From a virus: a stretch of 64,000 nucleotides of DNA. A program made the position numbers and the translations under genes. Below are positions 1 through 57,808 of this stretch, one piece after another. The notes beneath the pieces are model-generated. The model was not told the origin of the DNA. It worked only from the letters and a program-made list of their open reading frames with translations, and searched no databases. The stretch spans positions 10,119 through 74,118 of the IMG/VR virus record IMGVR_UViG_3300045988_107526. One strand, written 5' to 3'. Within the stretch, counting starts at the first letter, position 1; every line of letters begins with the position of its first letter.

Positions 1-1
1 G

Positions 2-3001
2 AAGCCTCTTGACAAGGCCATGGCCGATGTGCTTGATGCTTTCGATGGAAAAAAGGACGATGAGAAGATAAGAAACTTCAATCTCTACATGATTACCAAG
101 CATGGTTTGGAGAGAAACCGTATCTTGTATGTGCGTGATGCCTTGATGTATATGCGCATGAACGAGAAGACCAAGAAACTAGCTGATACTATTGAGTTCG
201 ATTGGAACAACGAGAAAGCTACCCTTGACGAGAAATTGGAGCGTGGAGACATCGACTTGAAGACTTATTATGAGCGCATGGACGATTTCATCCGTACCTA
301 CGTGGATAGTGACAATAAGTTTGATGCTGGCGAACATGACTATTCGGGTATTCACGCTATACAGGAAGTGGCTAAGTCTTCTGATCCTTACGATGATGCT
401 GAGGCTATCGCTAGCGTGATGGATTCAGAAGCAAAGATGGAGAGTATCAAGAAGGGGTCTGTTAAGGACTATTGGGATAAGGTGAAGGCTGCTACCCAGT
501 ATTCTATTGATAGTGACTATAAGAATGGTCTTATCAGCAGAGAGCTTTACGGTCATGTATCTGATATGTTCAACTGGTATGTGCCTTTGAGAAAGTATGA
601 TGAGGCTACTGCAGAAGATACCTACGGCTACATTACTGAGCAGGGCGACCCGAAGAGTTACATCGGAAGCACGATTATGAGAGCGAGAGGACACAAGTAC
701 CTGAGCGAAACAAACGTACTGGCGCAGATTGGTGCGATGGGTAACAGAGCTATCAAGAATGGCGGTATGAACGCTATCCGTCAGGCATTTGCAAGATTCG
801 TAAGAAACAACTCGAACAATAATCTTGTGACGGAGACTAGGGTTTGGTACGCCGATGACCCTATCACTCACACCACCGTGGAGCGTTACCCAGACATTCC
901 CGAGGACGCTACGGCTGATGAAATAAATCAGATAGTAGCAGACTTCAATATGGAAATGAAGGATTTGGAATCAAAGGGGTTGGCGACAAAGGTGTATCGA
1001 AGAGGAAGAATCGGCTATAAGTTCCAAAGAGCAGAGAACAAATCGCAGCATATCGTAGATGTGAAGATTGCCGGAAGGACCCATACCTTTATTATCAACG
1101 GAAATCCTAGAGCGGCGCAGGCTCTGAATGGATTGCTGGAGAACTCTGGCGCAAAGGGAATCATGAAACCATTGAGTTCTATATCAAGAATGATGGCGCA
1201 GTTGTGTACATCTTATAACCCTGAGTTCGTGATGCGAAACATCATGCGTGATGCGGAGTTTGCATCGAGCAACGTTACTTCTAAGGAGGGTGCAAGATAT
1301 GGTGCGCTCTGGGCGAAGTACTATGCGCAGTTGGGCTTGTATAAGGGTGCTTCAAATATCAGCTTCAAAGATTTTAGCGGAACTACTGGCTTGGGCTTGT
1401 TTGCCAAGTATCGTAACGGAACACTTGATACTTCTGACAAGGTACAGCGATATTTCAAGGAGTTTATGGAGAACGGCGGCGAAACCGGTTGGGTTCAGAT
1501 CAAGAACATGAAGGACTGGACCAAGGAGTATAAGAAAGATGTGAAGAGCGAAAGAAGCAAGATTGACAAGGGCGGTGCTGCCCTTCGTGACTTCTTCTTC
1601 GGAAATCTGGCGAACATCAACGAGGTGGCTGAGAATATCGCCCGATTTGCTACCTATTGTGCGAGCCGAGACAGTAACCGCTCTATCATCCGTTCTGTCT
1701 ATGATGCGAAGGAGGTATCTACCAACTTCAACCGCCATGGTAGTGGTGATGCCATCAAGAGTTTCAAGAACGGAGAAATGAGCTGGGCAGAGGAGAAGAG
1801 AAGATGGGCTTATGGTTTTTCTGCTAGCTATCTCAGACATTGTTCTATGTTCTTCAATGCCGGTATTCAGAGTACAAATCTTCTTGTGAAGAACTTGAAG
1901 AATCATCCTGTAGGTACTTCTATCAATATGCTTGCCATTCCTTTTGCCCTAGGTGCTCTGGCTGCACTTGGAAACAATGTGCTGATTGCGAGTGAGGATG
2001 AGAAGGATAGAAAGGGCGTGAAGGATCCATACGGAGAGTTGCCTGACTACGTGAGAAGAAACAATCTCTGTATCTACAAGGGAGGTGGCGAGTTCGTAAC
2101 TATTCCGCTTGCCATCGAATTGAGAGCCTTCTATGGATTGGGAGACTTGGCGGCTGGATTGACTTTCTCGCCTAACGTTAGCGGACAGAAGAATCCTGCC
2201 TTGGATGCCGTGGGATGTATGTCGCAGCTTGTGCCGGTGATGGACTATCTCGGCAACTCTTCGGCTGGCAAGGAGCCATTGAACGAGACGATCAAGGCTT
2301 TCTCTCCTTCTGCCCTATCTCCTTTCGTGGAATGGGAGTTAAATACCGACTGGAAGGGTGCGCCGATTGAAAGACGTGGTGACTGGAATGAAAATTCCCC
2401 TGCTTGGCAAAGAGCCTACAAGGGTGTGCCTGACGGATATATGGCTGTGAATAAGTTTGTGAATGCGCAGACGAATGATGTAGCCAAGGGTAATGAGGAT
2501 ATGCTTGGTAATAGTTTCCTGGATATGGTAACGAACCCTAGTATGCTAAATCATTACATCGGTGGTCTTGGCGGTGGTGCTGCTACCTTTACAGAGCGAG
2601 CTATTGGTGTTATTAAACACGGAGGCGACACAGAAACCAAGGATATTCCTTTCCTTCGCTCCCTACTCTATACGCCAAGTGAGCAGAGCAGCTTGCAGCG
2701 AACAAAGAGCAAGTGGTATAACTACAAGGACGAAATGGAAAAGACCATGGCAAACGTGGACCGACTGAAATCGAAGAACGTTCCGATTGATAAGAGAATC
2801 ACGAATATCGGTGAGTATTTCCATTTTCAAAACTCCAAGGAGGCTGCCAAGGTGAGAGTAATCGAGCTGGCAGAGAAACAGATGAATCGATGGAAGAAAA
2901 TGAGGGACAAGGCTAGCGATACCGAATCTATTAACTTCGCCAACCAGAATATTGACAGGATCATGATGGATGCGGTGGATGAACTAGATAGATTGGAATA
3001 A
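2..3001 (+). CDS. C-terminal ~1000 aa of a very large virion-associated protein (5' end outside window)
   Basis: The frame is open from the window edge, with no stop upstream of the ATG at 20. It has a Gly/Ala-rich hydrophobic stretch (MLAIPFALGALAALGNNVL) and is followed by a hairpin terminator. The motif NIARFA is only reminiscent of the PLxRFG domain of polyvalent proteins. Confidence 0.6.
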   Translation, partial: KPLDKAMADVLDAFDGKKDDEKIRNFNLYMITKHGLERNRILYVRDALMYMRMNEKTKKLADTIEFDWNNEKATLDEKLERGDIDLKTYYERMDDFIRTYVDSDNKFDAGEHDYSGIHAIQEVAKSSDPYDDAEAIASVMDSEAKMESIKKGSVKDYWDKVKAATQYSIDSDYKNGLISRELYGHVSDMFNWYVPLRKYDEATAEDTYGYITEQGDPKSYIGSTIMRARGHKYLSETNVLAQIGAMGNRAIKNGGMNAIRQAFARFVRNNSNNNLVTETRVWYADDPITHTTVERYPDIPEDATADEINQIVADFNMEMKDLESKGLATKVYRRGRIGYKFQRAENKSQHIVDVKIAGRTHTFIINGNPRAAQALNGLLENSGAKGIMKPLSSISRMMAQLCTSYNPEFVMRNIMRDAEFASSNVTSKEGARYGALWAKYYAQLGLYKGASNISFKDFSGTTGLGLFAKYRNGTLDTSDKVQRYFKEFMENGGETGWVQIKNMKDWTKEYKKDVKSERSKIDKGGAALRDFFFGNLANINEVAENIARFATYCASRDSNRSIIRSVYDAKEVSTNFNRHGSGDAIKSFKNGEMSWAEEKRRWAYGFSASYLRHCSMFFNAGIQSTNLLVKNLKNHPVGTSINMLAIPFALGALAALGNNVLIASEDEKDRKGVKDPYGELPDYVRRNNLCIYKGGGEFVTIPLAIELRAFYGLGDLAAGLTFSPNVSGQKNPALDAVGCMSQLVPVMDYLGNSSAGKEPLNETIKAFSPSALSPFVEWELNTDWKGAPIERRGDWNENSPAWQRAYKGVPDGYMAVNKFVNAQTNDVAKGNEDMLGNSFLDMVTNPSMLNHYIGGLGGGAATFTERAIGVIKHGGDTETKDIPFLRSLLYTPSEQSSLQRTKSKWYNYKDEMEKTMANVDRLKSKNVPIDKRITNIGEYFHFQNSKEAAKVRVIELAEKQMNRWKKMRDKASDTESINFANQNIDRIMMDAVDELDRLE

Positions 3002-13343: not shown

Positions 13344-14942
13344 CTAGGCTGCAATAAGCTGACCTGAGAAGAGTTCCCATTTGCCGCCCTTGTAGATGTA
13401 AACATTCTCCTTCTCGTACTTGGTTGGACCACTACCCTCGTAATCGGCTGTCAAAGCGACAATCATACCCTCACGAGGAGTCTCAGGCAACTTGCTCATG
13501 GAGATAATGTTGTTGATGACACCCGATGCACCAAGTGTAGAAATCTTATTCTCTGGACCAACAAGAATGCTGTTGTAGCCACGGAGAGCAACACAATCAG
13601 CCTCCCAGTGCATGTAACGCTTCGCCAGACGTGGATCGTAAGCATCCTTTGACAAATCGTTGGTGCGCTCCTTGCTCTTCTCCTTGACGTAGTGACGAGC
13701 ACCCTTGAAGTCAGCACCAATCATGCAGTCTTCCAAATCCATGTAGTCGAGCGTGCTATCCCAAGCGAAGTTGAGAGTACCATAGCTACACTTGAACTGG
13801 TTGAAGGTGATGTCGAACTCCTTAACTGTAGAGAACATGACATCGCGACCCTTAGGAAGTTCAATCTTCATCAGGCGCTCAACAGCGTTCTTACCACAGA
13901 AGAGATACATGGTATCAGACTCAGCGAAGTCAGTGAACATCAGCTTAGCAATAGCGATAAGGTCAGCGAAGGTGTAGGTGTCGCCAATACCGTAAGAGTT
14001 GGTAAGCTGGTTGATGATACCCTCAGCAGAGTAAGCATATTCCTGAGCACCGTCCTTGGTTTCCATGAGGAACTTCAACTTAGTACCATAGAGGTAACTG
14101 CGCTCCTGACGAAGCAAGAACTTGGTGAGAGCATCTTCCTTCATGTCGGCAACGGTATGAGGCGCCTTCTTCTTGATTTTCTCGAACTCCTCGGTGAAGA
14201 TGATAGAGAATGCACGCTTCTGCAAATAAACCTCCTCTGAGCGAGGCTGGTAGTTCTCAGGTGGAACGTTCATCTGACTCTCGGAGAGAATGGTAGAAGC
14301 ACAGAGAATACGGCTGTTAGCTGGGATAGCTGGGCAGCCCATAGAGTCGAGGGTTTCACCAATAGTTCCTTCGGTCTCTGCCGGACCATTAAGCGCCTGC
14401 AAAGTAACCTCATCCTTCGTCTTATCAACAACCAAGAGATTCAATCGACCGCTAACCTTGGTCTTAGAACCACGCTCGTAACCGGCAACAGAAGGAACGA
14501 TAACTGTACTACCCTTGTAGAGAGGAAGCAGAGAACCCGAGAAGTTAGTCTTGGTAAGCTTGATAGTGCCACCAGCTTCGACAGCTTCAATCTGCTTAGT
14601 AACAACACCATCGAGGGTATCACCACCGACACGGGCATGCTTCTTCTCGTAGCCATTACAAGGTACACTCTTTGTAATCTTACGGATAATCTGGAGCAAA
14701 GGAGTTCGGAAAGGGCGATATTTCTCTACCTCACTATCCCAATCCTCCTCGGCAAGACCACCCTTGCGAATCTGGGTTGCAGAAGCCTGCGTACCGGTCA
14801 AGTCCTGACCTTCTACCTTACCGCCTGGAGCCAACCGGTCTGATTTATCAGGATCAACAGGCTCAGTTGCCGCATCAGCCTTGGTTGAAGGTTCGTGACC
14901 CTCATCGCCAATCTGAGTAGTTGGCTCTGCGGTATCAGCCAT
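13344..14942 (-). CDS. Major capsid protein (HK97-fold-like), 532 aa from ATG 14942
   Basis: Follows the scaffold-like gene. The sequence is long, conserved-looking and alpha/beta. The ORF extends to 15050, which would add a signal-peptide-like N-terminus, so the start is uncertain. Confidence 0.6.
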   Translation of the reverse strand: MADTAEPTTQIGDEGHEPSTKADAATEPVDPDKSDRLAPGGKVEGQDLTGTQASATQIRKGGLAEEDWDSEVEKYRPFRTPLLQIIRKITKSVPCNGYEKKHARVGGDTLDGVVTKQIEAVEAGGTIKLTKTNFSGSLLPLYKGSTVIVPSVAGYERGSKTKVSGRLNLLVVDKTKDEVTLQALNGPAETEGTIGETLDSMGCPAIPANSRILCASTILSESQMNVPPENYQPRSEEVYLQKRAFSIIFTEEFEKIKKKAPHTVADMKEDALTKFLLRQERSYLYGTKLKFLMETKDGAQEYAYSAEGIINQLTNSYGIGDTYTFADLIAIAKLMFTDFAESDTMYLFCGKNAVERLMKIELPKGRDVMFSTVKEFDITFNQFKCSYGTLNFAWDSTLDYMDLEDCMIGADFKGARHYVKEKSKERTNDLSKDAYDPRLAKRYMHWEADCVALRGYNSILVGPENKISTLGASGVINNIISMSKLPETPREGMIVALTADYEGSGPTKYEKENVYIYKGGKWELFSGQLIAA

Positions 14943-15067
14943 AGCGAGAACGCCGCCGCCAGTAACCACGGCAAGAAGCATCAGAATCATCTTCATGATG
15001 AACTGACCGCTCATAAAATTCTTAAAACAATCTTTCTTCATTTTATACATATATTTATGGATTAATA

Positions 15068-15859
15068 TTAATAAGTGAGACCTTCGAAGAATCCGCTCTT
15101 CGGCTCATTCTTCTTTTTGGCAGGCTTGTTTCCAGCGCCAGAACTAGAAAGAGAAGGAGGAATACCTTCGGTGCTAGAAGAGCGAACCTTATTCTGAATC
15201 TTCTCGTTTCTGGCTTGCATAGCCGCCTCTTCGCGCGCCGAAGTGATGTCGGAATCGTAGTTGTTGGCATTATGGAGCATCTTCCAAATATCATCTGAAA
15301 TATCGCCACTCTCTACCTTGTCGTGAATCTCGTAAATCTGTGACCACATATCATGTGCTTCATCGGGATATAGATTCATCAGGCGTTCAAGCGACTTGCG
15401 CATGTTGGCAGTAACCTTCTCTGTAGCTTCGTTCTGTTCAGCCACGTCCTCATTGTGCTTGGCGAGAATCTCAGCGAGTTTCTTGCCGCCTTCAGGATCA
15501 TCAAGCAACGTCTTTACATCAATGCCCAAGCGAGCCATCGCATCAAACGGATTGTCGTCCGGATTTTTCTCCATATCCATCGCCAGAGCAGCGAGCCACT
15601 TGTGCTTATCGAATACTTTAGACAACGCCTTACCGCTCTCCTCGTATCGTCCGAGCAAATCAGCATCATCATTCATTGCCGCATAACGAGCTTCCTTGTC
15701 TTCGAAGTCTATGTCGGAGTGACGCTTGGAGAAACGCTTGGAGAAAGCTGTACGATTAGGGCGCTCATCTACAGACGTTTCATCTGTAGCAGCCTCAGCA
15801 GGTGGAGCCTGTTGTGCGCCACCTTCCTCATTCATCTGTGCTAATTCTTCTTTTGTCAT
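15068..15859 (-). CDS. Scaffolding-like protein, 263 aa
   Basis: Acidic and helical, located just upstream of the capsid gene. The ATG at 15859 (MTKEELAQ) lies 29 nt after the late -7-like box. The longer ORF to 16048 would cross the promoter region. Confidence 0.55.
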   Translation of the reverse strand: MTKEELAQMNEEGGAQQAPPAEAATDETSVDERPNRTAFSKRFSKRHSDIDFEDKEARYAAMNDDADLLGRYEESGKALSKVFDKHKWLAALAMDMEKNPDDNPFDAMARLGIDVKTLLDDPEGGKKLAEILAKHNEDVAEQNEATEKVTANMRKSLERLMNLYPDEAHDMWSQIYEIHDKVESGDISDDIWKMLHNANNYDSDITSAREEAAMQARNEKIQNKVRSSSTEGIPPSLSSSGAGNKPAKKKNEPKSGFFEGLTY

Positions 15860-15888: not shown

Positions 15889-15929
15889 CAAAAATGCAAA
15901 TAATTTGAAGAAGTTTTGCCGTGCTCCAA
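15889..15929 (-). promoter_or_regulatory. Late promoter module (leftward): TTGGAGCACGGCAAA-N18-CATTTTTG
   Basis: The minus-strand 15-mer at 15929-15915 has one mismatch to the family consensus. The -7-like box starts exactly 33 nt downstream of the 15-mer start. Confidence 0.6.
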
Positions 15930-15948
15930 CCTTGCGCTTGGCGGTTGG

Positions 15949-15989
15949 TTGGAACACGGCAAAGAAAGCCATGTTTTTGCCTATTTTTG
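15949..15989 (+). promoter_or_regulatory. Late promoter module (rightward): TTGGAACACGGCAAA-N18-TATTTTTG
   Basis: Exact 15-mer at 15949-15963 and TAnnTTTG at 15982-15989, giving a 33-nt offset. Confidence 0.65.
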
Positions 15990-16016: not shown

Positions 16017-18038
16017 ATGGTAAAGGCAAGAATACTGACACTTAGCAAAGTGATGCCTCAACATAACAAGTATGACTCTGTTAAGGCTCGCAAGCGAAGA
16101 CAAGAACACGGCAAGGACGAGGAGTTACTCAGCCGATGCAGAAATGCTTGGAATAACCTGAGCTGTGTGCGAGAAACGAGGGCGAGAACGATGCGCTACT
16201 GCATGGGCGACCAATGGAGCGACACCATCAGAGTATACCATCATGGCTACTGGGAAGAAATGACGGAGCGCACCTATATGGAAAGGCGCAACCAGACACC
16301 TATGAGCAACAACATCATGGTGAGCATTCTTGAATCTATTGCCGGTCTTTATGCCAAGCAGGGAACGGAACCGGTCTGCTTTGCAAGAGACAGCGACTCC
16401 CGACAACTGAGTGACATGATGAGTGCCACGATGCAATGCAACTGGCAGACAACGTACATGCAAGATGTGCTGAACCACGCTATTAAGGACTATCTTATGG
16501 GCGGCCAGATGTTTGTCAGAGAGAGTTGGGAGGCGAAGGAACTTGAAATGCCCGACTCATGGACAGACGCGATGGAACCCGACCACATGTTTTTTGAATG
16601 CGGAAGCGACCCACGACACAATGACGTGAGTCTTATCGGTGTTCTGCATGACGTGAGCCGAGAAGACTTGTATCAGAAGTTTGCCAAAAAGGAATATGGG
16701 CTTACGGAAGATGATCTGAATGCTATATTTGATATTTATCCTTCTGACGATAACAGCTACGGCTATGAGTTTAACGAAGAGAAGGCGTTGGAGAATCTCT
16801 GTTTCGACCATAGCAACAAGGGAAGACATTACTCTAGAGTGATTGAGGTGTGGACCACGGAGACCAAGCCAAGACTGCAATGCTTTGACCCTATTGCGAC
16901 CACAGGAACCGGCGCTTACTTCCGCATAGACTTGGATGATACTGCGATGATACAGAAGCTGCGCAACGATAACATGAAGCGCAAGCAGCAGTATGACGAA
17001 ATGGGTATAGCGGAAGAAGACAGAGCTTATATTACAAGCGAGGAGATTGCCGATAAGTACTGGTACTATACTTATATGGCACCAGACGGAACTATCCTCT
17101 GTCAGGGAGAAACACCATACGACTATAAAAGCCATCCATTTACAATGAAGCTCTATCCGTATATCAACGGAGAGATTCATCCATTCCTTGCCAACATCAT
17201 AGACCAGCAGCGATACATCAACCGACTGATTGTGATGAACGACATGGCTATCAGAAGCAGTTTCAAGGGATTCAAGATGATTCCTACAAATGTGCTTAAT
17301 GGAAGAACGCCAGAGCAGTTTATGGAAGAGGCGGTAGAGTATGACGGATGGATATTCTACAAGCCATCGGTGAAGACGCCGAATGCGAAGCCGGAGATTA
17401 TTACATCGAATGCCGTGAACATCGGTACGAATGAACTGTTGCAGATAGAGCTGAACCTGATTAGAGAGGTTACCAACGTGAGCGGAGCTTTGCAGGGTAA
17501 GACCCCATCGGCAGGAACATCGGCAGCCAGATACGCACAGGAAAGCCAGAATGCAACTACGTCTCTGTATACCATCCTTGCCGACATGGACGTGTTTACG
17601 GAGAAACTGGCAACCAAGAAGTGCATGACTATCCAACAGTACTACGAAGACGGAAGAAAAGTTTACGACCGGAACTTCAACACGGTTTACAAATACGACC
17701 GCCTTTCGGCAAGAGATATTCACTTCAAGATCAGCATCAAGAATGCAGCAGCTACGGCAGCATTCAATACGATGCAAAATGATACGCTTGACAAGCTTCT
17801 TGAAATGGGCGGTATCAACATCATCCAGTATCTGCAGAACCTCAACGCACCATTTGCAGACAAGTTGCTTGCCAGCGTACAGGAGCAGCAGGCTCAGCTC
17901 GAACAGATGTATCAGCAGCAACAGGCAATGGCTATGCAGCAAGGTGGCGGTCAAGTAGAGAACGGAATTGTGCAGGGTGCAGACCAGAATGCGGTAGCAC
18001 AGGCACAGAGTGCATTAGGATATAACAGAGCAGCATAA
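16017..18038 (+). CDS. Portal protein
   Basis: 674-aa ORF at the head of the packaging operon, divergent from scaffold/capsid, with a Q-rich C-terminus. The start at 16017 was chosen because the 27-nt box-to-ATG spacing matches the other late promoters. ATGs at 16005 and 16053 are alternatives. Confidence 0.7.
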   Translation: MVKARILTLSKVMPQHNKYDSVKARKRRQEHGKDEELLSRCRNAWNNLSCVRETRARTMRYCMGDQWSDTIRVYHHGYWEEMTERTYMERRNQTPMSNNIMVSILESIAGLYAKQGTEPVCFARDSDSRQLSDMMSATMQCNWQTTYMQDVLNHAIKDYLMGGQMFVRESWEAKELEMPDSWTDAMEPDHMFFECGSDPRHNDVSLIGVLHDVSREDLYQKFAKKEYGLTEDDLNAIFDIYPSDDNSYGYEFNEEKALENLCFDHSNKGRHYSRVIEVWTTETKPRLQCFDPIATTGTGAYFRIDLDDTAMIQKLRNDNMKRKQQYDEMGIAEEDRAYITSEEIADKYWYYTYMAPDGTILCQGETPYDYKSHPFTMKLYPYINGEIHPFLANIIDQQRYINRLIVMNDMAIRSSFKGFKMIPTNVLNGRTPEQFMEEAVEYDGWIFYKPSVKTPNAKPEIITSNAVNIGTNELLQIELNLIREVTNVSGALQGKTPSAGTSAARYAQESQNATTSLYTILADMDVFTEKLATKKCMTIQQYYEDGRKVYDRNFNTVYKYDRLSARDIHFKISIKNAAATAAFNTMQNDTLDKLLEMGGINIIQYLQNLNAPFADKLLASVQEQQAQLEQMYQQQQAMAMQQGGGQVENGIVQGADQNAVAQAQSALGYNRAA

Positions 18039-19983: not shown

Positions 19984-20397
19984 ATGGAAGATTTTGAAAT
20001 GGATGGATTTAAGTCTGTAAGGGAGATACAGAAAGAGAAGAAGGAGAAGGTAAAGAAACTTCTCCCTGCAAGAAAGAGTGCCCAAAAGGAATATATACGT
20101 GACTGGCTGGCAAGGAGCCAAGAGCAGTTTGAGGATTGTATGAACCAACTGGCAGAGTATGATCCTAAGACGTACGTCACCATCTACAAAGACCTTACCA
20201 AGCACATGATACCAAAGCAGACAGAAGTAAGCGTTACCCACGGAATAGATGCAGACTTCAAGCAGCTTATGGCACTCGGTATGACAACCGTAGAGGACGA
20301 AGACGAGGCAGACGTACTGGATATAAGCAAAGCACCCGAGATACAGGATGCAGATTTTGAGGAACTAAACGATTCAACGGATGGCTCTAGTAACTGA
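19984..20397 (+). CDS. Putative terminase small subunit, 137 aa
   Basis: Called from position only. It lies immediately upstream of TerL and overlaps it, with a basic N-terminus and an acidic C-terminus. Confidence 0.35.
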   Translation: MEDFEMDGFKSVREIQKEKKEKVKKLLPARKSAQKEYIRDWLARSQEQFEDCMNQLAEYDPKTYVTIYKDLTKHMIPKQTEVSVTHGIDADFKQLMALGMTTVEDEDEADVLDISKAPEIQDADFEELNDSTDGSSN

Positions 20398-22498
20398 ACA
20401 GGAAATAGATAATCTCGTAGCGGAAAATCAGGAGCGATACGATGAGATTTATGGCACCTACGACCCTATGACAGGAGAAGGTTGCTATAACTTTGAACAT
20501 CGTGTGCTGATAGAACTATCCGATTTCTTCATTCCTAAGATGTGGGTTCCGAAGAAGACCGCCAAATCTGTTCTGTTCAGAGGTCTGAGAAAGATGGGCA
20601 GCCTAAAAGACTACATCAACTATGTGGCGCACCAGAAGGATGATGCCCAGCATTTCCAAATGCTTACCTTTGCCATCTGTAGGGTGAGGTTCATGGAAGA
20701 CCCAGAGTTTGCCCTATTCGTGACCGATAAGATTGAGGATAAGAAGACCGGTAAGATGATTCCTTTCAAGCTGAACTATCCTCAAAGAAAGCTACTGAAG
20801 ATTATGGAGGACCTGCGGAATGCCCACAAACCGGTGTTCGTGGTTATTCTGAAAGCACGTCAGTGGGGCGGCTCTACCCTATCACAGCTTTACATCAAAT
20901 GGATTCAGGACTATAGGCGCGATGGTTGGAATGCTATTGTGCTTGCCCAACAGAAGAATACTGCCAAGAAGATTAAGGCGATGTACCGAAAAGCTTTGGA
21001 GCGTCAGCCGGGGTGGACCGTGGGGCATCCGGGCGCAAAACTCCAGTTCTCGCCATACGAAAATTCTCCTGACGATTTCCAAGTAACGGATGGTGTGAAG
21101 GCAATCAGACGAAGTACGCTGACGGTAGCATCCTTCGAGAACTTCGATTCTGTGCGTGGTAGCAACTTCCACTGTGCTCACTATTCGGAGGTAGCCTATT
21201 GGAAGAAGACACCAGAGCATGATCCTGAGGGTGTGATTTCTTCTATATCCGGTGGTATCGACCCATTGGAAGACAACGTGGAGATATTCGAGAGTACCGG
21301 TAGAGGTAACTCTGGTTTCTTCTACGACAAGTGCCAGTTGGCAATGGACCCAAAGAATAATGATGCTTATTCGTTCCTCTTTATTCCTTGTTTCTTCATC
21401 GAAAAGGATATGACTCCTGTAGAGAACAGAAGGGCATTTGCTAAGTGGCTTTTGCAGAACAGAGACCGAAGCACCTGTCCGAAGGGCTATCGTGAGACAG
21501 GAAAGTTCTTCTGGCGAATGTGGCAGAAGGGTGCTTGTTTTGAGGCGATAGAATGGTACAGAAACTACAGAAACAAGTTTACCACACATGCGGCATGTGC
21601 TACCGAGGCTCCTATTGATGAGGAAGATGCGTTCAGAAACTCAGGTAGACTGGTATTCAATCCTTATTCTATAGACGACATGCAGGCTATGTATAAGCAA
21701 GACCCTAAGTTTACTGCCGACATCGTGGTGAACATCAGCGTGAAGGATGATAACACCATTCCGAACTCGAAGGTGAAACTGAGAGACGATGGCGATGGAG
21801 ACTTGAAGATTTGGGCTGTTCCAAACTGCCTGCAAGTGGAGAACAGATATTTGGTGAGCGTGGACATTGGAGGTAAGAGTACTACATCTGACTATACCGT
21901 TATGACCGTGATAGACCGATTCGGTATGATTCCTACGGTGAAGGGTAAACCAAAGGTGGTAGCGAGATACAGGGGACATGTTAGACATGATAAGCTGGCA
22001 TGGATGGCTGCTGCCCTAGCCCATTATTATGATGATGCGCTGCTGGTAATAGAGAGTAATACGGCAGACCGAGAGAAGAACAATAACACGGAGGGTGATC
22101 ACTTTCTGACTATTCTGCAGGAGATAGCCGACTACTACGATAATCTGTATCAGAGAACGAGCAGTTCGGAGAATGTGGAAGACAACGTACTGGCGAAATA
22201 TGGTTTCCAAACCAACAAGCTGACGAAGCAACAGGTGATTGATAACTTGGAAGAGTTTATTGATGATAACCTGTATGAGGAGCCAGACAAGGAAATGTAT
22301 CATGAGTTGCGCATCTATGAGCGACATGATGATGGAAGCTTGGGTAATATCGTGGGTAACGGAAACCATGATGATGTGGTAATGAGTACCGGCATCGGTC
22401 TCTTTGTGAGTCTTACGGACATGGATAAGCCTAGCTGGAAGAAAGCGGAAAGAAGAAGCCGTGGTGGTGATGGTGTTCATACGGCGGCGAAAATTTAG
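20381..22498 (+). CDS. terL: Terminase large subunit
   Basis: Walker-A-like ILKARQWGGSTLSQ. RNaseH-like nuclease motifs VSVDIGGKS, LLVIESN and GNHDDVVMS. 705 aa. Confidence 0.8.
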   Translation: MALVTEQEIDNLVAENQERYDEIYGTYDPMTGEGCYNFEHRVLIELSDFFIPKMWVPKKTAKSVLFRGLRKMGSLKDYINYVAHQKDDAQHFQMLTFAICRVRFMEDPEFALFVTDKIEDKKTGKMIPFKLNYPQRKLLKIMEDLRNAHKPVFVVILKARQWGGSTLSQLYIKWIQDYRRDGWNAIVLAQQKNTAKKIKAMYRKALERQPGWTVGHPGAKLQFSPYENSPDDFQVTDGVKAIRRSTLTVASFENFDSVRGSNFHCAHYSEVAYWKKTPEHDPEGVISSISGGIDPLEDNVEIFESTGRGNSGFFYDKCQLAMDPKNNDAYSFLFIPCFFIEKDMTPVENRRAFAKWLLQNRDRSTCPKGYRETGKFFWRMWQKGACFEAIEWYRNYRNKFTTHAACATEAPIDEEDAFRNSGRLVFNPYSIDDMQAMYKQDPKFTADIVVNISVKDDNTIPNSKVKLRDDGDGDLKIWAVPNCLQVENRYLVSVDIGGKSTTSDYTVMTVIDRFGMIPTVKGKPKVVARYRGHVRHDKLAWMAAALAHYYDDALLVIESNTADREKNNNTEGDHFLTILQEIADYYDNLYQRTSSSENVEDNVLAKYGFQTNKLTKQQVIDNLEEFIDDNLYEEPDKEMYHELRIYERHDDGSLGNIVGNGNHDDVVMSTGIGLFVSLTDMDKPSWKKAERRSRGGDGVHTAAKI

Positions 22499-25402: not shown

Positions 25403-25885
25403 TTATCTGTTTTTGATATTATTTATGAAATACGATACGATGTAGCCTAATACGAAGCAGTAAAAATGCAGGAGTCCGTTGACATTCGGCACGGCCATGG
25501 TGCAAATAATGAACGGCATCGCTTTCTTTAATGCCTCTTTCCATCGTCCTGTCCTACCCCACATTGAACCAAAGGATGCAAATAAGAAACCGGAAAGCCC
25601 CATTGTAGGCTGACTAACATACATGGGCAGCAGACTAGCGACAGAGGCAACAGCCAGAGAAGTGACTGGTTTCATATCGTTCTTTATCTGCCAAAGCACC
25701 AGAAGGTTTACGGCAAGATGAAATCCGTTGACATGGAAGAAGCTATACAGGATATGGTTCTGCCAAGGACAACCAGGATAGAAACCGACGTGGCAAGTAC
25801 ACAGAACGAGGCAGATGATGCTAAGCACCAGCTTTGTTCGAAAGTTTCTTCTTACGAATGTCCATTTCTCTGTAATTTTTTCCAT
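25403..25885 (-). CDS. Rhomboid-family intramembrane serine protease, 160 aa
   Basis: FFHVNGFHLAVNLLVLW matches the rhomboid HxxxxHxxxN motif. GLSGFLFA matches the GxSG catalytic serine motif. NGLLHFYCFVLG supplies the TM6 histidine. Six hydrophobic helices. The start at ATG 25885 overlaps the upstream gene by 65 nt. Confidence 0.75.
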   Translation of the reverse strand: MEKITEKWTFVRRNFRTKLVLSIICLVLCTCHVGFYPGCPWQNHILYSFFHVNGFHLAVNLLVLWQIKNDMKPVTSLAVASVASLLPMYVSQPTMGLSGFLFASFGSMWGRTGRWKEALKKAMPFIICTMAVPNVNGLLHFYCFVLGYIVSYFINNIKNR

Positions 25886-26276
25886 ACTTCTTATAGTAAG
25901 CGAAAATAAACTTGAGATTACTCGGCTGGATAAAGAACTCTGGTGCAGGCTCAGAAACAAGGAACTGGCAGATAAACCATAAAGATTTTCCCACAAACTC
26001 CTTTCGCTGCGTCATTTCGTTCATCCTGTTGAACAGCGTATAGTACAACTTCTGCCGAATCGGCTTCATGCTATCCACCTTTGAGAAATCGCCGACTGCC
26101 ATTCTGCGGAGTATATCCCAAGCTCTTTTGGGAGAAACGTAGTATCTAGGAGCAGGAGAATGGACTACCTTTTCCCAAGCCTCCTGTTGGGAATGGCAAT
26201 TAGGAGCTATCTCCCGATACGCCTTCATCAGATCATCCCTCTGTCTGTCAATCAATTCGTAATTTGCTCTTGCCAT
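25821..26276 (-). CDS. Hypothetical soluble protein co-transcribed with rhomboid, 151 aa
   Basis: First gene of a two-gene minus-strand unit, with its own -7 box 23 nt upstream. Confidence 0.55.
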   Translation of the reverse strand: MARANYELIDRQRDDLMKAYREIAPNCHSQQEAWEKVVHSPAPRYYVSPKRAWDILRRMAVGDFSKVDSMKPIRQKLYYTLFNRMNEMTQRKEFVGKSLWFICQFLVSEPAPEFFIQPSNLKFIFAYYKKYGKNYREMDIRKKKLSNKAGA

Positions 26277-26299: not shown

Positions 26300-26307
26300 C
26301 AAATATA
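26300..26307 (-). promoter_or_regulatory. -7 box TATATTTG for rhomboid unit
   Basis: Minus-strand TAnnTTTG with 23 nt to the ATG at 26276. Confidence 0.5.
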
Positions 26308-26399
26308 CATATTATTTAGAATATAACCAAATAAGCGCATAAAGATTTAAATAAGTTTAATATTAGACTGGTTTTCATGGTGTTACGAAAGAAAAAGTT

Positions 26400-26648: not shown

Positions 26649-26964
26649 ACCAACAGTACTAGATACCGATTTCAACGGGAACTGCATCATCTGGATTTAT
26701 GTACTGGCATACATTTATATGCCACTGACCATGATACCGGTAAGTTTCTTCTTCAGATACTGCTGGATTTTCCGCATTCCGTTCTTCTATTTTTTCGGTA
26801 TCAACGCTATCAGATTGTATTATCAGCACTGGCTCATCACTCCCGAGCAGTTGGAGATGCACCATGTGTTTATCATATTCACTTTAATGCTTTACGCTTA
26901 TGGATTTATCAAAATCGCTCTATCGAATAGCAGAATCTGCCTTCGGGATGCTAAGAAACGATGA
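26632..26964 (+). CDS. Possible multi-pass membrane protein, 110 aa
   Basis: Fills the same-strand gap and is very hydrophobic. It competes with an antisense 68-aa ORF at 26659-26865, and I cannot decide between them. Confidence 0.3.
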   Translation: MGIIPRPTVLDTDFNGNCIIWIYVLAYIYMPLTMIPVSFFFRYCWIFRIPFFYFFGINAIRLYYQHWLITPEQLEMHHVFIIFTLMLYAYGFIKIALSNSRICLRDAKKR

Positions 26965-27361
26965 GTGCGGGTTTACAGAGGAAGAAGAGAGGATTGTGCA
27001 GAGAAATCTGCTTTACTGGATGGAAAGGAAGCATCACTTTGACGAGCAACTGGGCAGAGCCTGCATCGCCAACATCTATTATTTTGATGATGATGTTCAC
27101 AAGAAGTATGCTCCTTACTTCGGGTTTGATGAGTTGAAGGAGGATTATGACCGGCTATCTTGGAACATACCGGACTACAACTTCTGGGATTTTGCGGTAA
27201 CGATGAACAAGATGTATGCTGACCATATAGACGTGGTGGGCAAATGGTCGAAGAATAAAGATACTACCAGAAAAAGGATTTCGGAACTGGCTATCAGTTT
27301 CCTCTGTGACGAATCGACAAACCACCCTACAGATAAAATCTGGTGGTACATGAATAGCTAA
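26900..27361 (+). CDS. Hypothetical protein, 153 aa
   Basis: Same-strand ORF. An alternative start exists at 26948. Confidence 0.5.
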   Translation: MDLSKSLYRIAESAFGMLRNDECGFTEEEERIVQRNLLYWMERKHHFDEQLGRACIANIYYFDDDVHKKYAPYFGFDELKEDYDRLSWNIPDYNFWDFAVTMNKMYADHIDVVGKWSKNKDTTRKRISELAISFLCDESTNHPTDKIWWYMNS

Positions 27362-27362
27362 G

Positions 27363-27403
27363 TTGGAACACGGCAAAAGCTATTGAAAAGCCTTTTATCT
27401 TTG
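27363..27403 (+). promoter_or_regulatory. Late promoter module for lysis cassette: TTGGAACACGGCAAA-N18-TATCTTTG
   Basis: Exact 15-mer at 27363-27377 and -7 box at 27396-27403, giving a 33-nt offset. 26 nt to the ATG at 27430. Confidence 0.65.
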
Positions 27404-28760: not shown

Positions 28761-29072
28761 ATGGCGAAGATTAGCGAAGAACTGCAGATGATTGATTCGC
28801 TCCTGATGGAATTTCATGAGCGGATTCAGAGCGGAAGATGTCTGACGAGTAGTCTTCAAAACAAAATGATGTTGAAGTTCTTGCACGAAATCGCCAATAA
28901 GGACGAGCCTATCAGCAAGGCTGAGGCATGTGGCTATGTTCATGTTTCGAGGGCTACCTTTGACCGGCTTGTGAAAGAAGGCAGGCTGCCAAAGGGTAAA
29001 AAACGGAAAGGATGGACCGAGCTAGTTTGGTACGAAAAAGATTTAGATGAATATATAGATAGATTGGTATAG
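28761..29072 (+). CDS. Excisionase/MerR-like HTH DNA-binding protein, 103 aa
   Basis: ISKAEACGYVHVSRATFDRLVKEGRLPKGKK...WYEKDL resembles HTH_17/Xis-type domains. Confidence 0.5.
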   Translation: MAKISEELQMIDSLLMEFHERIQSGRCLTSSLQNKMMLKFLHEIANKDEPISKAEACGYVHVSRATFDRLVKEGRLPKGKKRKGWTELVWYEKDLDEYIDRLV

Positions 29073-41191: not shown

Positions 41192-42325
41192 TTACATCTT
41201 GCCTTCGAGGGCATCGAAAGCAGATTGTACGTCCTTATTTAATGTACGTGCGTATCTAGTAGTCTGACGCAAGGTAGTGTGACCAAGCACCCTTGCCACG
41301 ATGTTGATAGGCATTCCCTTAGACAGGAATAAGGTTGCAGCAGTCGCTCTACCCATGTGGGTATGCAATCTGTCAACTCCGACCATCTGCCCGATCGCCT
41401 TCAGATAATCATTATACTTCTGATTAGTCATTCTAGGCAGCTTGAAATCATACTTCTGTAGTATCTCCAGGGCAGGTTTTAGAAGTTGGAATACGAAATC
41501 CGTATCTGTCTTCGTTCTCTTAGCGTGATAGAACATCTTGCCGCCAACCTCCTCGCAGTTAGTATAATCGAAGGATGCAAGGTCAGAGTATGCAAGTCCG
41601 GTGTAGCATTGGAAGAGGAACAAATCTCTTGCATGGATAATATGAGGTGTTGAGAGTTTCAGTTTCTTGATGGCAGCAAACTGCTCTTCTGTGACACAAT
41701 CAACATACTGCTTTTCTCCCTTGCCAATATGGAATGGAAGAAACTTATAAGGATTCTGCTCAATAAGTCCGTCTATCATCGCATCATTGATGAACAACTT
41801 GAGATACTTGTGGTAGTCGTAGATTGTACATTGAGCCTTATTCTGTCTGTGGAGATACTCATCCATCGCACGCACCTTCGACACATTGCAGTCTTTGAAC
41901 GACTTTATCTTCCCCCATTTTTTGAGAAATTTGATAAAGACATCATAGCGTTTCTTGGTATGCTCGCACACCTTGCGCTCATTTCGTCTTCTCTCGCAGT
42001 ACTCGATAAAAGAAGTTCCTTCGTCTTCTCCGTTCATTAAGGAAATAACGGCATTCAAATCATAGTTTCCTTCTTTCACCAACTTCTCAATAACCTCATG
42101 CGCTCTAGAAGTGTATGCAGTCAATAAGTTGTTGAGTTCATCTGCATCCTTGCGCTTGATTATCTTCTTTGTGGTATCAGACCATTGATTTGTTGTCACC
42201 TTGATACCGGTAGAATAATACTTGCGCGTACCCTTTGTACTAAAGCACAATTCGATAGAAACTTCCTTTTGAGAGGTTCCACGTTTCTGTCGATTGTGAA
42301 AAATACTTAAATTAATTTTTGCCAT
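41192..42325 (-). CDS. int: Tyrosine recombinase/integrase (Bacteroides arm-binding type)
   Basis: C-terminal HMGRATAATLF...LGHTTLRQTTRYA supplies the R, HxxR and Y residues. ATG at 42325 (MAKINLS) chosen. The ORF extends to 42373. Confidence 0.8.
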   Translation of the reverse strand: MAKINLSIFHNRQKRGTSQKEVSIELCFSTKGTRKYYSTGIKVTTNQWSDTTKKIIKRKDADELNNLLTAYTSRAHEVIEKLVKEGNYDLNAVISLMNGEDEGTSFIEYCERRRNERKVCEHTKKRYDVFIKFLKKWGKIKSFKDCNVSKVRAMDEYLHRQNKAQCTIYDYHKYLKLFINDAMIDGLIEQNPYKFLPFHIGKGEKQYVDCVTEEQFAAIKKLKLSTPHIIHARDLFLFQCYTGLAYSDLASFDYTNCEEVGGKMFYHAKRTKTDTDFVFQLLKPALEILQKYDFKLPRMTNQKYNDYLKAIGQMVGVDRLHTHMGRATAATLFLSKGMPINIVARVLGHTTLRQTTRYARTLNKDVQSAFDALEGKM

Positions 42326-42656
42326 TTTGGTAACATAAATTTTGAAGGTTGGTATCATTTTTGTAACACTCACCTTCGTTCAACAATTTTTGTGAATGAT
42401 ACAAACCATTGTTTTTTAGATAGTTATCCCCAAAATGCGTTTAAACTAGTTTTAAACTGGTTTAAGAAATCATCTTTTGTTACATATCTCTTTAAAAAAC
42501 AAAAGACAACCTATATAAGTATCTGTTATTCAATACGTTATATAGACTGCTTATTTGATTTTTTCTTGACTAAACGTTGCGTTTTTACGCCTAAAAAGTG
42601 ATTCCGTTGGGGTCACAACCAATTTTTCACAAATCTGTCTATATCAGCCACTTATC

Positions 42657-46981: not shown

Positions 46982-47010
46982 AAAAAGCAGAGCCTAGTGC
47001 CCTGCTTTTT
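46982..47010. terminator. Bidirectional hairpin AAAAAGCAG/CTGCTTTTT
   Basis: 9-bp stem. The 3' arm lies within the last codons of the minus-strand gene. Confidence 0.5.
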
Positions 47011-47410
47011 CCTTGTCTTCACGTTCTCGTTTCTCAGCTATAGCCTGTCTGATCCATTCTGCTTTATTTCGTCCTAGGGATTCGAAAAACTCAAACGTTT
47101 TTTCGTTTACATGCGTCACAACCCTGTAGATGAGGGCAGCTGCGCCCTTGCTAGGTGCTCCGGCTCGCTCTCTGCGACCACCCCACCCCGGATGCTGACT
47201 GACCTTGCATTGCTGAACCTTGCCCTTGCTATTGATGCGGAACTTCATTTTCAGCCGGTCCTTTACCCACACTTCAGCGATTACCGCATCGGGCGTCTGC
47301 TGAAGGGTAGATTTGGCGATGCCGATAAGATAGGCTTTATCCTTGAAGAAGGTCTCTGTCTCATCGAGTATCGCCCAATCATCGTATATTATGATTCTTG
47401 CCCTTTCCAT
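46994..47410 (-). CDS. Hypothetical protein with C-terminal ribbon-helix-helix-like segment, 138 aa
   Basis: YRVVTHVNEKTFEFFESLGRNKAEWIRQAIAEK resembles the CopG/RHH fold pattern. Confidence 0.45.
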   Translation of the reverse strand: MERARIIIYDDWAILDETETFFKDKAYLIGIAKSTLQQTPDAVIAEVWVKDRLKMKFRINSKGKVQQCKVSQHPGWGGRRERAGAPSKGAAALIYRVVTHVNEKTFEFFESLGRNKAEWIRQAIAEKREREDKEKAGH

Positions 47411-53841: not shown

Positions 53842-54141
53842 ATGGTACAATTGAGAATAAAAGAGTGCTTAAAAGCACATGGGATGCAGCAAAAAGATTT
53901 GGCTAAAGGTATGGGTATTGAGCCTATATCACTTAGCCAAATGTTGGCTCGCAAAAAGTTTGGTATTGATAGGCTTGAACAAATGGCAAAGATAATCGGC
54001 TGCAAGGTGTCTGAACTCTTCGAGGAGGATAGCAAAGAAGGCTTTGCTAGCTATATCCGCTACAAGGGCATCCATTATACTGCCGATACATTGGAGGAGT
54101 TCTTCAAGCAAGTTGATGAGTTAAGGATTATAGCGAAATGA
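53842..54141 (+). CDS. XRE-family HTH regulator, 99 aa
   Basis: HTH MQQKDLAKGMGIEPISLSQMLARKK. Divergent from early operon 2. Confidence 0.65.
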   Translation: MVQLRIKECLKAHGMQQKDLAKGMGIEPISLSQMLARKKFGIDRLEQMAKIIGCKVSELFEEDSKEGFASYIRYKGIHYTADTLEEFFKQVDELRIIAK

Positions 54142-54344
54142 TTATAGTCCAAATTATCATGTGGCTCGCCTTCGGTGCAGTCTCACTCGTTTGTATAGCC
54201 TATCTCTTTAATGTATTCGGGAAGGTGGAGGAACATAAGAAACCATTCACGAAGTATGCTGAGTGGCTCTTACAACTGCTCATCGTGGTGTGCTACCTGT
54301 ATTCGGTGTACACCTTCGGCAAGTGGCTGAAAGGCTTGTGGTGA
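54138..54344 (+). CDS. Small two-helix membrane protein, 68 aa
   Basis: ATGA overlap with the XRE gene. Two hydrophobic helices. Confidence 0.5.
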   Translation: MIIVQIIMWLAFGAVSLVCIAYLFNVFGKVEEHKKPFTKYAEWLLQLLIVVCYLYSVYTFGKWLKGLW

Positions 54345-54412
54345 GGGCGCTAGCCCCACAGGGCATGGGGAGGGCGCTTGCGCCCGTGGGGGCGCTGCCC
54401 CCTTATCTCCCC
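54341..54412. repeat. GC-rich nested-hairpin element, copy 2 (with an extra 5' hairpin)
   Basis: GGGC-GCTA-GCCC sits at the stop codon. Then outer stem GGGGAG/CTCCCC encloses GGGCGC-TT-GCGCCC and GGGGGC-GCT-GCCCCC. Confidence 0.7.
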
Positions 54413-54561
54413 CGAGGATTCTTCACTCTCACCCATAAGGTATGAACACACAAGAGAACAGAGAGAGTACAGAGAGAGAAAACAATTTCCCTAACTAGGA
54501 AAAAATATTTATCCAACTAGGAAAATAGAAAAGCACAATTCCCGGTACTTGGTACGGAGGA

Positions 54562-54620
54562 GGTCTTGGCTCATCACATTGGTCTATTTTGGTCTATTTT
54601 GGTCTTAATCCTAGATGAGC
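54562..54620. repeat. Iteron-like direct repeats (TTGGTCT x3 at 10-bp period, plus one GGTCT) bracketed by 7-bp inverted repeat
   Basis: TTGGTCT at 54579, 54589 and 54599, and GGTCT at 54562. GCTCATC at 54569-54575 pairs with GATGAGC at 54614-54620. Confidence 0.8.
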
Positions 54621-55120
54621 GCATTATCCGGCACAAAACCATGAAACCTACGAAAAACCCACAAAATCGGCTATAATCTGCCCAAAAATGGCTCTTAAAC
54701 GGCTCAAAACTCACGAATTTGGGAGAAATCCCGAACAACTGCCCGAAAATCGCAAAAATCGGAAGAAATGAGCGAGTTTAGCGTTGATTGTGGGTGTAAA
54801 CAATTCAAGAAGGCTGAATACGGCTAGTTAAAGTTTGCTAACGAACTCCTTGCGTGCGTGCGTACCTATTAATGCAAAACCACTTTTTTGTTTGCAAAGA
54901 ATCTTCTTTTATGAAATAAGAACTTTCTTTACACTATGGCTTTATCGATCCTATGGGACGATTGAGACTAACTTGCTTATAATTAGCCACTTGTCTTTTC
55001 TTTACAAAAATCACGTTTTATTACAAAATTGGTCTTCTAGATGGCGAAATGAGAGGAGGAAAAGGGTGGATTGCGCCCCGATAAAGAAATTGGTGGGATT
55101 TTGGGCGATTTTGAACGAGG

Positions 55121-55161
55121 TTGGAACACGGCAAAATGGAACTTCAAATATTATATATTTG
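55121..55161 (+). promoter_or_regulatory. Late promoter module: TTGGAACACGGCAAA-N18-TATATTTG
   Basis: Exact 15-mer at 55121-55135 and -7 box at 55154-55161, giving a 33-nt offset. 27 nt to the ATG at 55189. Confidence 0.65.
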
Positions 55162-55188: not shown

Positions 55189-55956
55189 ATGACGGAAATA
55201 TTATCAAAAATCCCAAAGCATTTGACCTCTTGCCCTGTTCTCACGGACAAGAAAGAATGGGTCTTAGGTGCTGCTTCCTTGGCTCTTGGTGTTGGCTCCT
55301 CTATTTTCGGTGCTAACAAGGCTAAGAGGGCGGCTAGAAGGGCAGCAGCCGAGAATAAGTACAGAACGAACGCTGAGAAGGCTTGGTACGACAAAAACTA
55401 CAATACGGACTACCTTGACACGAAAGCCGGTCAGAACCTCATGAGAAGGGCGAAGGAAGTACAGGACGAGTATGTTCGCAAGGCTGATGGTGCTGCTGCC
55501 GTTGGCGGTGGAACTGCTGCAAGTGTGGCGATGGCGAAGGAGGCTGCTAACAAGGCTATGGGCGACACTATAGCCAATATCGCTGCACAGGACACGTCTC
55601 GAAAGCAGCATGTGGAGGATGTTCACCTTCAGAACACTCAGCAGTTGTCTAGAGAACGTCAGCAAATCGAGCAGCAGAAGGCGCAAGCCACTAGCGATGC
55701 GGCTCAAAATGCGTCAAATGCTATGTTTAATTTCGGTGTGAACCAATTGGGGTCAGAACTAGAAGGTGCTAAAGCGGTGAAAACCAACGCTTTAGGCTCA
55801 AATGGAAGTGGAAGTGGTAACACAAATGTATCACACACCATGAATGAGACCGCTCGTTCTGCTGCAAGCGACCATTTGGCTGAAAGCATGATGTCTCCCG
55901 AGGAGAAGAACCAATACCGCTTGAAGAAGGCAGTTGGCTTGTCGGGGCTTGGGTAG
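55189..55956 (+). CDS. Hypothetical virion/ejection-type protein with one TM helix, 255 aa
   Basis: ATG at 55189 follows the late promoter. The track ORF from 54835 would run through the promoter. Helix WVLGAASLALGVGSSIFGA, then an Ala/Gln-rich helical region. Confidence 0.55.
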   Translation: MTEILSKIPKHLTSCPVLTDKKEWVLGAASLALGVGSSIFGANKAKRAARRAAAENKYRTNAEKAWYDKNYNTDYLDTKAGQNLMRRAKEVQDEYVRKADGAAAVGGGTAASVAMAKEAANKAMGDTIANIAAQDTSRKQHVEDVHLQNTQQLSRERQQIEQQKAQATSDAAQNASNAMFNFGVNQLGSELEGAKAVKTNALGSNGSGSGNTNVSHTMNETARSAASDHLAESMMSPEEKNQYRLKKAVGLSGLG

Positions 55957-56464: not shown

Positions 56465-56467
56465 ATT

Positions 56468-57784: not shown

Positions 57785-57808
57785 TTTATTTAAGGAAATC
57801 AAACGCTT

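Follow-up and report, generated by a model that had tools for sequence, protein, structure and literature searches.

The window analysed here, a 64,000-nucleotide stretch comprising most of a temperate podovirus-like phage genome, carries four late-type promoters in which a 15-bp box stands where the host promoter would have its -33 element, exactly 18 nt upstream of a host-type -7 element. In related phages this geometry (15-bp box, 18 nt, -7 box) was invariant in more than 200 loci while the box itself differed by lineage. The comparison shows the box of the window to be one of a large number of interchangeable specificities, all set in one fixed promoter architecture, in an abundant family of Segatella and Bacteroides phages. 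We consider it probable, for the model as a whole, that the promoters are activator-dependent late promoters read by a phage-encoded, lineage-specific protein. The candidate that we would put forward as that reader, with close to an even chance of being correct, is a small all-helical protein of 151 residues encoded at 25821-26276.

Four promoters with a common box in the window

The original prediction described an inverted pair of boxes with further copies at 27363 and 55121, and at all four coordinates we found exact copies (0 mismatches) of the 15-mer TTGGA[A/G]CACGGCAAA; for a given 15-mer, ~1e-4 exact copies are expected in 128 kb. When up to three mismatches were allowed there were 9 matches against 2.9 expected, a number that was reached in 0 of 100 shuffles, and an alignment of the four sites showed an additional conserved G directly 5' of every box copy. 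The promoter elements are as follows.

15915-15929, minus strand: left box TTGGAGCACGGCAAA of the leftward scaffold/capsid promoter (exact match and alignment)
15889-15896, minus strand: -7 element CATTTTTG of the leftward promoter, 18 nt past the box, with the ATG at 15859
15949-15963, plus strand: right box TTGGAACACGGCAAA of the rightward portal promoter (exact match, alignment and relatives)
15982-15989, plus strand: -7 element TATTTTTG of the portal promoter
27363-27403, plus strand: lysis-operon promoter, with its box at 27363-27377, TATCTTTG at 27396-27403 and the ATG at 27430
55121-55161, plus strand: fourth late promoter, that of the giant-protein operon, with its box at 55121-55135, TATATTTG at 55154-55161 and the ATG at 55189

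The alignment also bore out the remainder of the predicted layout. The spacer between box and -7 element is exactly 18 nt, and unconserved, at all four sites, and it is followed by a Bacteroides-type -7 box with the consensus [T/C]AnnTTTG; three of these boxes (TATTTTTG, TATCTTTG and TATATTTG) have the form TAnnTTTG and that of the scaffold promoter (CATTTTTG) starts with C. Between the -7 box and the first ATG, where 26-29 nt were predicted, we measured 29 nt for the scaffold, 28 nt for the portal, 26 nt for the lysis and 27 nt for the giant-protein operon, the portal value being taken to the ATG at 16018 (MVKA...) rather than to 16005 because the former is conserved in relatives. The claim that the normal -33 element is missing was likewise correct, as none of the four late promoters has a TTTG 19-21 nt 5' of its -7 box, the sequence there being GCAAA instead. 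A search of the window for further copies (up to five mismatches, spacer of 17-19 nt) identified no intergenic one and a single poor match within a gene. The inverted pair at 15915-15963 is simply two late promoters back to back.

Genes behind the late promoters

All four boxes precede late-type operons, i.e., those for scaffold and capsid, portal, lysis and a giant polyvalent protein. Matches to phrog_22323, PF17236 and phrog_156 support the earlier statement that the box pair separates a leftward scaffold/capsid operon from a rightward portal operon.

15068-15859, minus strand: scaffold-like gene (phrog_22323), first of the leftward late operon
13344-15050, minus strand: SU10-type major capsid protein gene (PF17236) in the leftward late operon
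16018-18038, plus strand: portal gene, first of the rightward late operon (phrog_156, 2.8e-53; PF16510 on homologues)
Behind the promoter at 27363: lysis cassette with phrog_20732 and the amidase phrog_822
55189 to 59227, plus strand: operon behind the fourth promoter, four genes followed by a giant ORF

The 705-aa protein of the rightward operon (20381-22498) had no Pfam match and no PDB sequence match; we call it terminase-like only because the GenBank records of the cultured phages BS-TP4 and BF1-TP2 carry a structure-based note to that effect on its homologue. The giant ORF (59242-64000) encodes at least 1586 residues before it leaves the end of the window, and a 993-aa C-terminal piece lies at window positions 1-3001. 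In relatives the giant protein is one polyvalent, DarB-like ORF of 5,334-6,174 aa (with ddrB-ParB, AAA_34, Helicase_C_4 and LPD38 domains), and the source genome is probably circular or permuted and cut within the giant-protein gene. Other genes of the window encode an integrase (41192-42358), cI- and Cro-like HTH proteins, RecT, NinG and a dUTPase. Rfam and tRNA scans of the window gave no match, nor did a megablast search of the capsid-portal region against GenBank phages.

The region upstream of the fourth late promoter (54344-55120) is an unusually long non-coding segment (~780 nt) with dense short direct repeats. These comprise TTGGTCTATT in two copies, a 22-nt unit ending in CTAACTAGGA / CCAACTAGGA in two copies, GC-rich 19-mers in three copies and AAAAYCNCANAAWTYGG in three copies; there are also inverted repeats, which reach within 8 nt of the fourth box. 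This region could serve as an origin or packaging site, or it could mark a genome end.

Box types across related phages

Relatives were retrieved through their portal protein (81-100% identity), since the portal is blind to the box and its use avoids selection on the box, and this gave 83 loci. The -7 element TATTTTTG was intact in 82 of these, 26-35 nt before the portal ATG, the exception (L186) having a 1-nt deletion. The 15-mer that lies 18 nt 5' of this element fell into about 11 types, each with an inverted partner at the scaffold promoter. At the portal promoter they read:

Type A: TTGGAACACGGCAAA
Type A': TTGGAACACCGCAAA
Type A'': TTGGAATACGACAAA
Type B: CGGAAACACGGCAAA
Type B': CGGAAACACGGAATA
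Type C: CGTGCAATGGGCAAA
Type C': CGTGGTATCGACAAA
Type C'': CGTGTTATGGGCAAA
Type D: TTAAATAACCGAAAG
Type E: ATATGTACGAGCAAA
Type F: TATAGAACTTACAAA

The 3' end of the box, (G/A)CAAA, is fairly constant and its 5' 9-10 nt are type-specific; the lineage-specific boxes include TTGGAAC..., CGGAAAC..., CGTGnnAT..., TTAAATAAC... and TATAGnAC.... Whenever a genome or lineage had at least two readable late promoters, their box types agreed. For instance, the promoter of the giant-protein operon repeats types A, B and C, as well as type F on the same contig as a type F portal locus, and it shows additional types (GGAAAACACGACAAA, TTGGGGAACGTCAAA, TGTGCTATGAGAAAA, GTTACTATGAGAAAA and CGTGTAATCGGTAAA); at the lysis promoter, too, the box type recurs within a genome or lineage. 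A-like relatives vary at 5 of the 30 box positions, at 16 of the 36 spacer positions and at 17 of the 19 positions that separate the two boxes.

A comparable arrangement is present in cultured Bacteroides phages. In both BKO1-TP3 and BS-TP4 a box AAWAGWTAAMC lies 18 nt 5' of TAnnTTTG ahead of the scaffold, portal and lysis operons, and the box is kept between the two phages while the spacers have diverged; because the consensus was drawn up with the sites already in view, the estimate of its chance occurrence is not an independent one. No repeated box was recognised in Bacteroides phage BF1-TP2. In BKO1-TP3 (L501, 6808-8298) and BS-TP4 (L503, 5818-7308) we also observed a reverse transcriptase gene directly 5' of the box-driven DUF4376/lysis operon and 3' of a gene for a ~2,640-aa protein, which may belong to a diversity-generating retroelement.

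The major capsid allele of the window (13344-15050) shares only 51-53% identity with that of most type A relatives and is 93-94% identical to that of type B genomes and ~90% identical to that of some C' and F genomes, from which we deduce a recent exchange of the capsid gene between lineages, with the promoter box staying type A.

Two scans with other boxes were set aside. The type F box gave single, scattered, chance-like matches in IMG/VR, and a metagenome scan for CTATGAGAAAA-N18-TAnnTTTG gave 120 loci that we treated as chance because none of them carries a homologue of the candidate regulator.

Occurrence of the box, host-type promoters and the host

The original prediction proposed a search for the box in related phage contigs. 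In IMG/VR, exact copies of the box were located at more than 118 loci, and almost all of these were the four orthologous promoter sites of close relatives. The remaining loci were chance matches on unrelated contigs, several of them in repeat-protein coding sequence. We also searched 185,579 species genomes for the exact box plus -7 element. The matches were in phage-like Segatella/Prevotella MAG contigs, together with contigs binned to 'Bacilli' and Lachnospiraceae MAGs; the others were chance matches in unrelated organisms, three of them within repeat-protein coding sequence. Apart from chance matches the box is therefore confined to phage-like contigs, which is unlike a host regulon motif.

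Two groups of matches deserve separate mention. Four loci (L046, L119, L124 and L126, from an IMG/VR contig, Lysobacterales, Salinimicrobium and Anaerolineales) have the same 16-mer in coding sequence within a recurring ...GTTGGAACACGGCAAAnGTnACnnATATG... context, which resembles the repeat-protein motif W-N-T-x-x-V-T-x-M (possibly of a BspA-like leucine-rich repeat), i.e., they are chance look-alikes of the box. In a Prevotella sp. MAG contig (L123, 6842-6883) a type A box, an 18-nt spacer and TATTTTTG occur in a context unlike that of the four orthologous sites, possibly as an additional, fifth late promoter of a relative.

The window has seven full host-type promoters (TTTG-N18-21-TAnnTTTG), none of them at the head of a late operon. 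Five precede early or lysogeny genes or the gene of the candidate regulator; the other two fall within coding sequence. Those with assigned positions are:

53682, minus strand: host-type promoter at the start of the leftward early operon
42738, plus strand, and 42697, minus strand: host-type promoters flanking the integrase region
26300-26331, minus strand: host-type promoter TTTG-N20-TATATTTG before the candidate regulator gene

The host of this gut phage is Segatella (Prevotella) copri. This is based on the composite motif being found in S. copri and Prevotella MAG contigs, on portal homologues that carry the names Prevotella or Segatella, and on the exact 25821-26276 protein being encoded in an S. 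copri isolate genome. With 1402 portal relatives found, phages of this family are very abundant in metagenomes of Segatella copri. In one group of metagenome contigs (L334-L336, 12660-20223) a related phage appears to be integrated, as host-like genes (dnaN, an RNase T-like exonuclease, dfp and DUF4835) begin ~2 kb past the gene for the ribbon-helix-helix-like protein (46994-47410 in the window).

A candidate reader that follows the box type

It had been stated in the original prediction that no candidate regulator is identifiable in this DNA. The comparative data improve on this, in that they single out one protein:

25821-26276, minus strand: candidate box-specific regulator, 151 aa, all-helical (phrog_27246), with its own host-type promoter

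The identity of this protein to the window copy drops in the order of box similarity among the portal-anchored loci, from 97-100% in type A to 70% in A', 68-69% in A'', 60% in B', 58-59% in B, 54% in C, 53% in C' and 52-53% in D, and a pairwise matrix resolves into the blocks {A,A',A''}, {B,B'}, {C,C'} and D. In Mantel comparisons of protein and box it scored r=-0.64 (p=0.0006), with ten other genes ranging from -0.44 to +0.42 and the portal at 0.00. In the pairwise comparison, too, the portal was flat and, apart from the DUF7841 gene with its discordant grouping (below), the remaining genes were unrelated to box type; genes beyond the ~20-kb anchored loci were compared over fewer box types. 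Loci anchored on the 25821-26276 gene itself added lysis-promoter boxes and a subtype C'''. Among about 130 loci there was no discordance between box type and allele of this gene. The co-variation covers four major groups with about nine subtypes; for types E, F and G no locus held both a homologue and a late promoter.

The protein contains a helix-PAP[R/E][Y/F][Y/F]-helix repeat twice. Sequences of the helix that follows the second PAP motif sort into exactly the groups set by the 5' half of the box, and the first repeat is the more conserved one, as is the 3' half in the box. Its family, phrog_27246, is of unknown function, with at least 362 representatives at 50% clustering that are annotated as 'hypothetical protein' in all sources, and the exact window sequence occurs on 140 contigs. 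No DNA-binding domain was recognised in the protein, which had no Pfam match and, even with a 90-sequence profile, no PDB sequence match; its single-sequence AlphaFold model was poor (pLDDT 62) and a fold search with it gave no match. The ORF is overlapped by a longer ORF.

The neighbourhood of the candidate gene is conserved. A gene for a rhomboid-like membrane protein always overlaps and follows it (the two span 25403-26276, minus strand, in the window), and the pair is present in the cultured phages (L501, 19956-20869; L503, 19956-20869; L624, 20001-20872). In BKO1-TP3, BS-TP4 and BF1-TP2 the homologue lies just 5' of the rhomboid-like gene, which is followed by a gene for a terminase-like protein with 35% identity to that at 20381-22498 of the window. 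In BF1-TP2 the homologue is first in the row homologue, rhomboid-like, TerL-like, portal, which is the classical position of a small terminase; in the window the gene is on the opposite strand and 3.3 kb from the TerL-like gene. The position in the three cultured phages would fit a RinA-type late activator or, alternatively, a small terminase.

Proposed mechanism and alternatives

We propose that the host sigma-A RNA polymerase would read the Bacteroidota -7 element [T/C]AnnTTTG, and that the asymmetric 15-bp box, at about -45 to -31, would be bound by a phage-encoded, lineage-specific protein that supplies the missing -33 contact in the manner of a class II activator. The capsid, portal, lysis and injected-protein operons would then wait for this protein. 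If it is the 25821-26276 protein, the likeliest reader, it would be made from an ordinary host-type promoter, and its two helix-PAPxFY-helix repeats could touch the box in its variable 5' half and in its conserved 3' half with (G/A)CAAA. The pattern of conservation suggests how the repeats may be divided, the second contacting the 5' half and the first the 3' half. At the late promoters that we compared, related phages would have swapped box and reader jointly. Two features of the comparison lead to this proposal. The box keeps its place and changes its sequence in concert at several promoters, which is hard to explain without a co-evolving phage-encoded trans factor; and the -7 box is unchanged and of host type, so that host sigma-A polymerase plus a phage activator is the simplest mechanism. 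We infer late timing, start sites, activation rather than repression, and DNA binding from the sequences. More tentatively, and as something possible rather than likely, phrog_27246 might constitute a previously unrecognised family of Bacteroidota-phage activators that act as a monomer on an asymmetric 15-bp box and stand in for the contact between sigma-A region 4 and the -33 element, a box-protein pair that sister phages would have diversified into many mutually orthogonal specificities, which would amount to a natural library for Bacteroides and Prevotella.

The original prediction regarded the box as the site for a phage-specific late factor that replaces the -33 element, which the late-operon context and the concerted change of the box in relatives support, and it left open whether this factor is an activator or an alternative sigma factor. 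An activator fits better. A phage sigma-like protein, or appropriation of the host sigma in the manner of MotA/AsiA with the box as the '-35' and possibly the 151-aa protein as the factor, seems unlikely to us, even though the box does occupy the -33 position, types A and B have a GGAAC-like core, and phage sigma factors, too, show promoter elements that are specific to a lineage and vary together with a small phage protein. Downstream of the box lies the host -7 element in unchanged form; GGAAC is 26 nt away from it, too far for the spacing of the sigma-70 family, and this core is missing from types C, D, E and F. In addition, no sigma-70 r2/r4, ECF or MotA/AsiA domain was found among ~60 ORFs searched with Pfam and ~30 searched with PHROGs, a search that was not exhaustive for ORFs below 60 aa. 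The preference for an activator thus rests on the host -7, on the distance of the GGAAC-like part and on the lack of a sigma-like domain. ECF-like -35/-10 elements 16-18 nt apart were not present, nor was any conserved element between the GGAAC core and the -7 box. A sigma-54 reading (TGGCAC-N5-TTGC, GG and GC ~10 nt apart) was rejected, as TGGAAC is followed by ACGGC and then AAA, not TTGC. Among about 90 window ORFs there was no Pfam or PHROG match to known late activators either.

A second protein was considered as the late activator that reads the box:

46994-47410, minus strand: 138-aa protein with a hypervariable strand and a C-terminus like that of ribbon-helix-helix proteins; its gene closes the leftward early operon

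Its gene was in the same position in all ten diverse genomes examined, the family combines a conserved scaffold with a hypervariable putative DNA-reading strand, and its allele splits type A from type B cleanly (93-100% versus ≤69%). Pfam RHH_1 matches were weak (5 of 57 members, best E-value 0.026), and a confident AlphaFold model (pLDDT 87) showed two C-terminal helices after an extended segment. We nevertheless demoted this protein to a quite improbable reader because seven more genomes revealed that an unchanged strand can go with another box, and similar boxes with unrelated strands. For instance, P0222 has the strand NRVVLHV as in type B, yet its box is TGTGCTATGAGAAAA; L342 and L344 have the 3' 11 nt of the box in common, yet their homologues are 39% identical; and L334 and L343 both have a C-type box with homologues that are 41% identical. 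The Mantel r for this protein was only -0.32, a fold search gave no significant match and a PDB-sequence profile search gave none. The target of this protein does not appear to be the late box. As a family it is characterised by a conserved HP[GN]WGGxR arm and dozens of strand variants, and it is always encoded by the last gene of the early operon.

Three other proteins were rejected as readers. Alleles of the XRE-type HTH protein 53842-54141 shuffle independently of the box, with a 93%-identical allele in a type B genome; the HTH_17 protein at the end of the lysis operon (28761-29072) is equally identical in A' and B genomes; and the DUF7841 protein next to the lysis promoter (26900-27361) groups B with A and B' with C.

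The box might instead be a repressor operator that silences the late operons, e.g., in lysogeny, so that the -7 element alone fires once the repressor is removed. A site in this position (-45 to -31) could serve to exclude polymerase just as well as to recruit it, and the phage is temperate (integrase at 41192-42358, cI-like HTH proteins). However, the early and lysogeny promoters have a -33 element and none of the four late promoters does, which marks the latter as promoters needing help, not restraint, and the XRE-type HTH protein 53842-54141 does not follow the box type; we give this reading only a slight chance. That the box is a packaging (pac), replication or recombination site, with the 151-aa protein as the small terminase, would accord with the homologue being just 5' of rhomboid-like and terminase-like genes in BKO1-TP3, BS-TP4 and BF1-TP2, but is extremely improbable given that the four copies per genome are gene-oriented, at a fixed 18 nt from the -7 and 26-29 nt from the ATG across box types, and this is the geometry of promoters, not of pac sites or origins.

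Implications of a probable activator-dependent late promoter

Late-gene timing in temperate phages of the dominant gut Bacteroidota is essentially undescribed, and in the open-access literature we found no description of such promoters, or of phrog_27246 proteins, in Bacteroidota phages. What is new relative to the earlier account is that boxes are swapped between lineages within a fixed architecture and that a regulator candidate can be named. The concerted changes of the box suggest that each related phage probably encodes its own late-gene activator. If the promoter-plus-activator reading is right, a simple sequence rule (box, 18 nt, TAnnTTTG) marks the late operons of these phages, and the 151-aa protein would be a testable candidate for a new DNA-binding fold. 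The phages would also offer natural orthogonal activator/promoter pairs for organisms without genetic tools, and they would provide a clear case of cis and trans elements that are kept together by selection across a recombining mosaic genome.

Comparison with known systems

Functionally, the promoters described here would be of the well-known activator-dependent design of phage late and middle promoters, and they belong by sequence to none of the families with which we compared them. Relative to the canonical Bacteroides sigma-A promoter, they have in common the -7 element and the leader of ~25 nt to the ATG; unlike it, they lack the -33 TTTG, which is replaced by the 3' end of the box, GCAAA.

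The middle promoters of T4 combine a MotA box, centred at -30, with AsiA/MotA sigma appropriation. These MotA-box promoters are the closest in logic, as the host -10 is kept and the -35 is replaced by an asymmetric phage-specific box that a phage protein reads and that is used in one orientation. Unlike in T4, the present box lies at about -45 to -31, there is no MotA/AsiA homologue by Pfam or PHROG, the host is a member of the Bacteroidota with a -33/-7 promoter grammar, and the box is swapped between sister lineages.

The class II sites of the monomeric two-HTH activators MarA/SoxS/Rob are asymmetric, 15-20 bp long, over the -35 and in a fixed orientation, as is the case here. Their likeness extends to the candidate reader, which is small and helical with two similar repeats; this is a functional analogy only, and unlike those proteins the candidate has no AraC-family HTH signature. 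With Mu C/Mor, P2 Ogr/Delta and RinA/ArpU/Alt the present promoters would share the scheme of a phage-encoded activator that is made earlier and serves several late operons (head, tail, lysis) through a shared upstream motif, and RinA-type genes adjoin terminase genes, like the homologues of the candidate in BKO1-TP3 and BF1-TP2. The candidate differs from all of these in having no sequence similarity to any of them; moreover, Mu C and Mor act as dimers on dyad-symmetric sites, in contrast to the asymmetric box described here. The lambdoid Q proteins differ in mechanism, as Q targets an elongation complex that has paused at a single late promoter and the present site is 5' of the -7 at four promoters. 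In their evolution, however, Q and its qut site resemble the box and its putative reader, being regulator/site pairs that are not interchangeable between close phages and that travel together by mosaic recombination.
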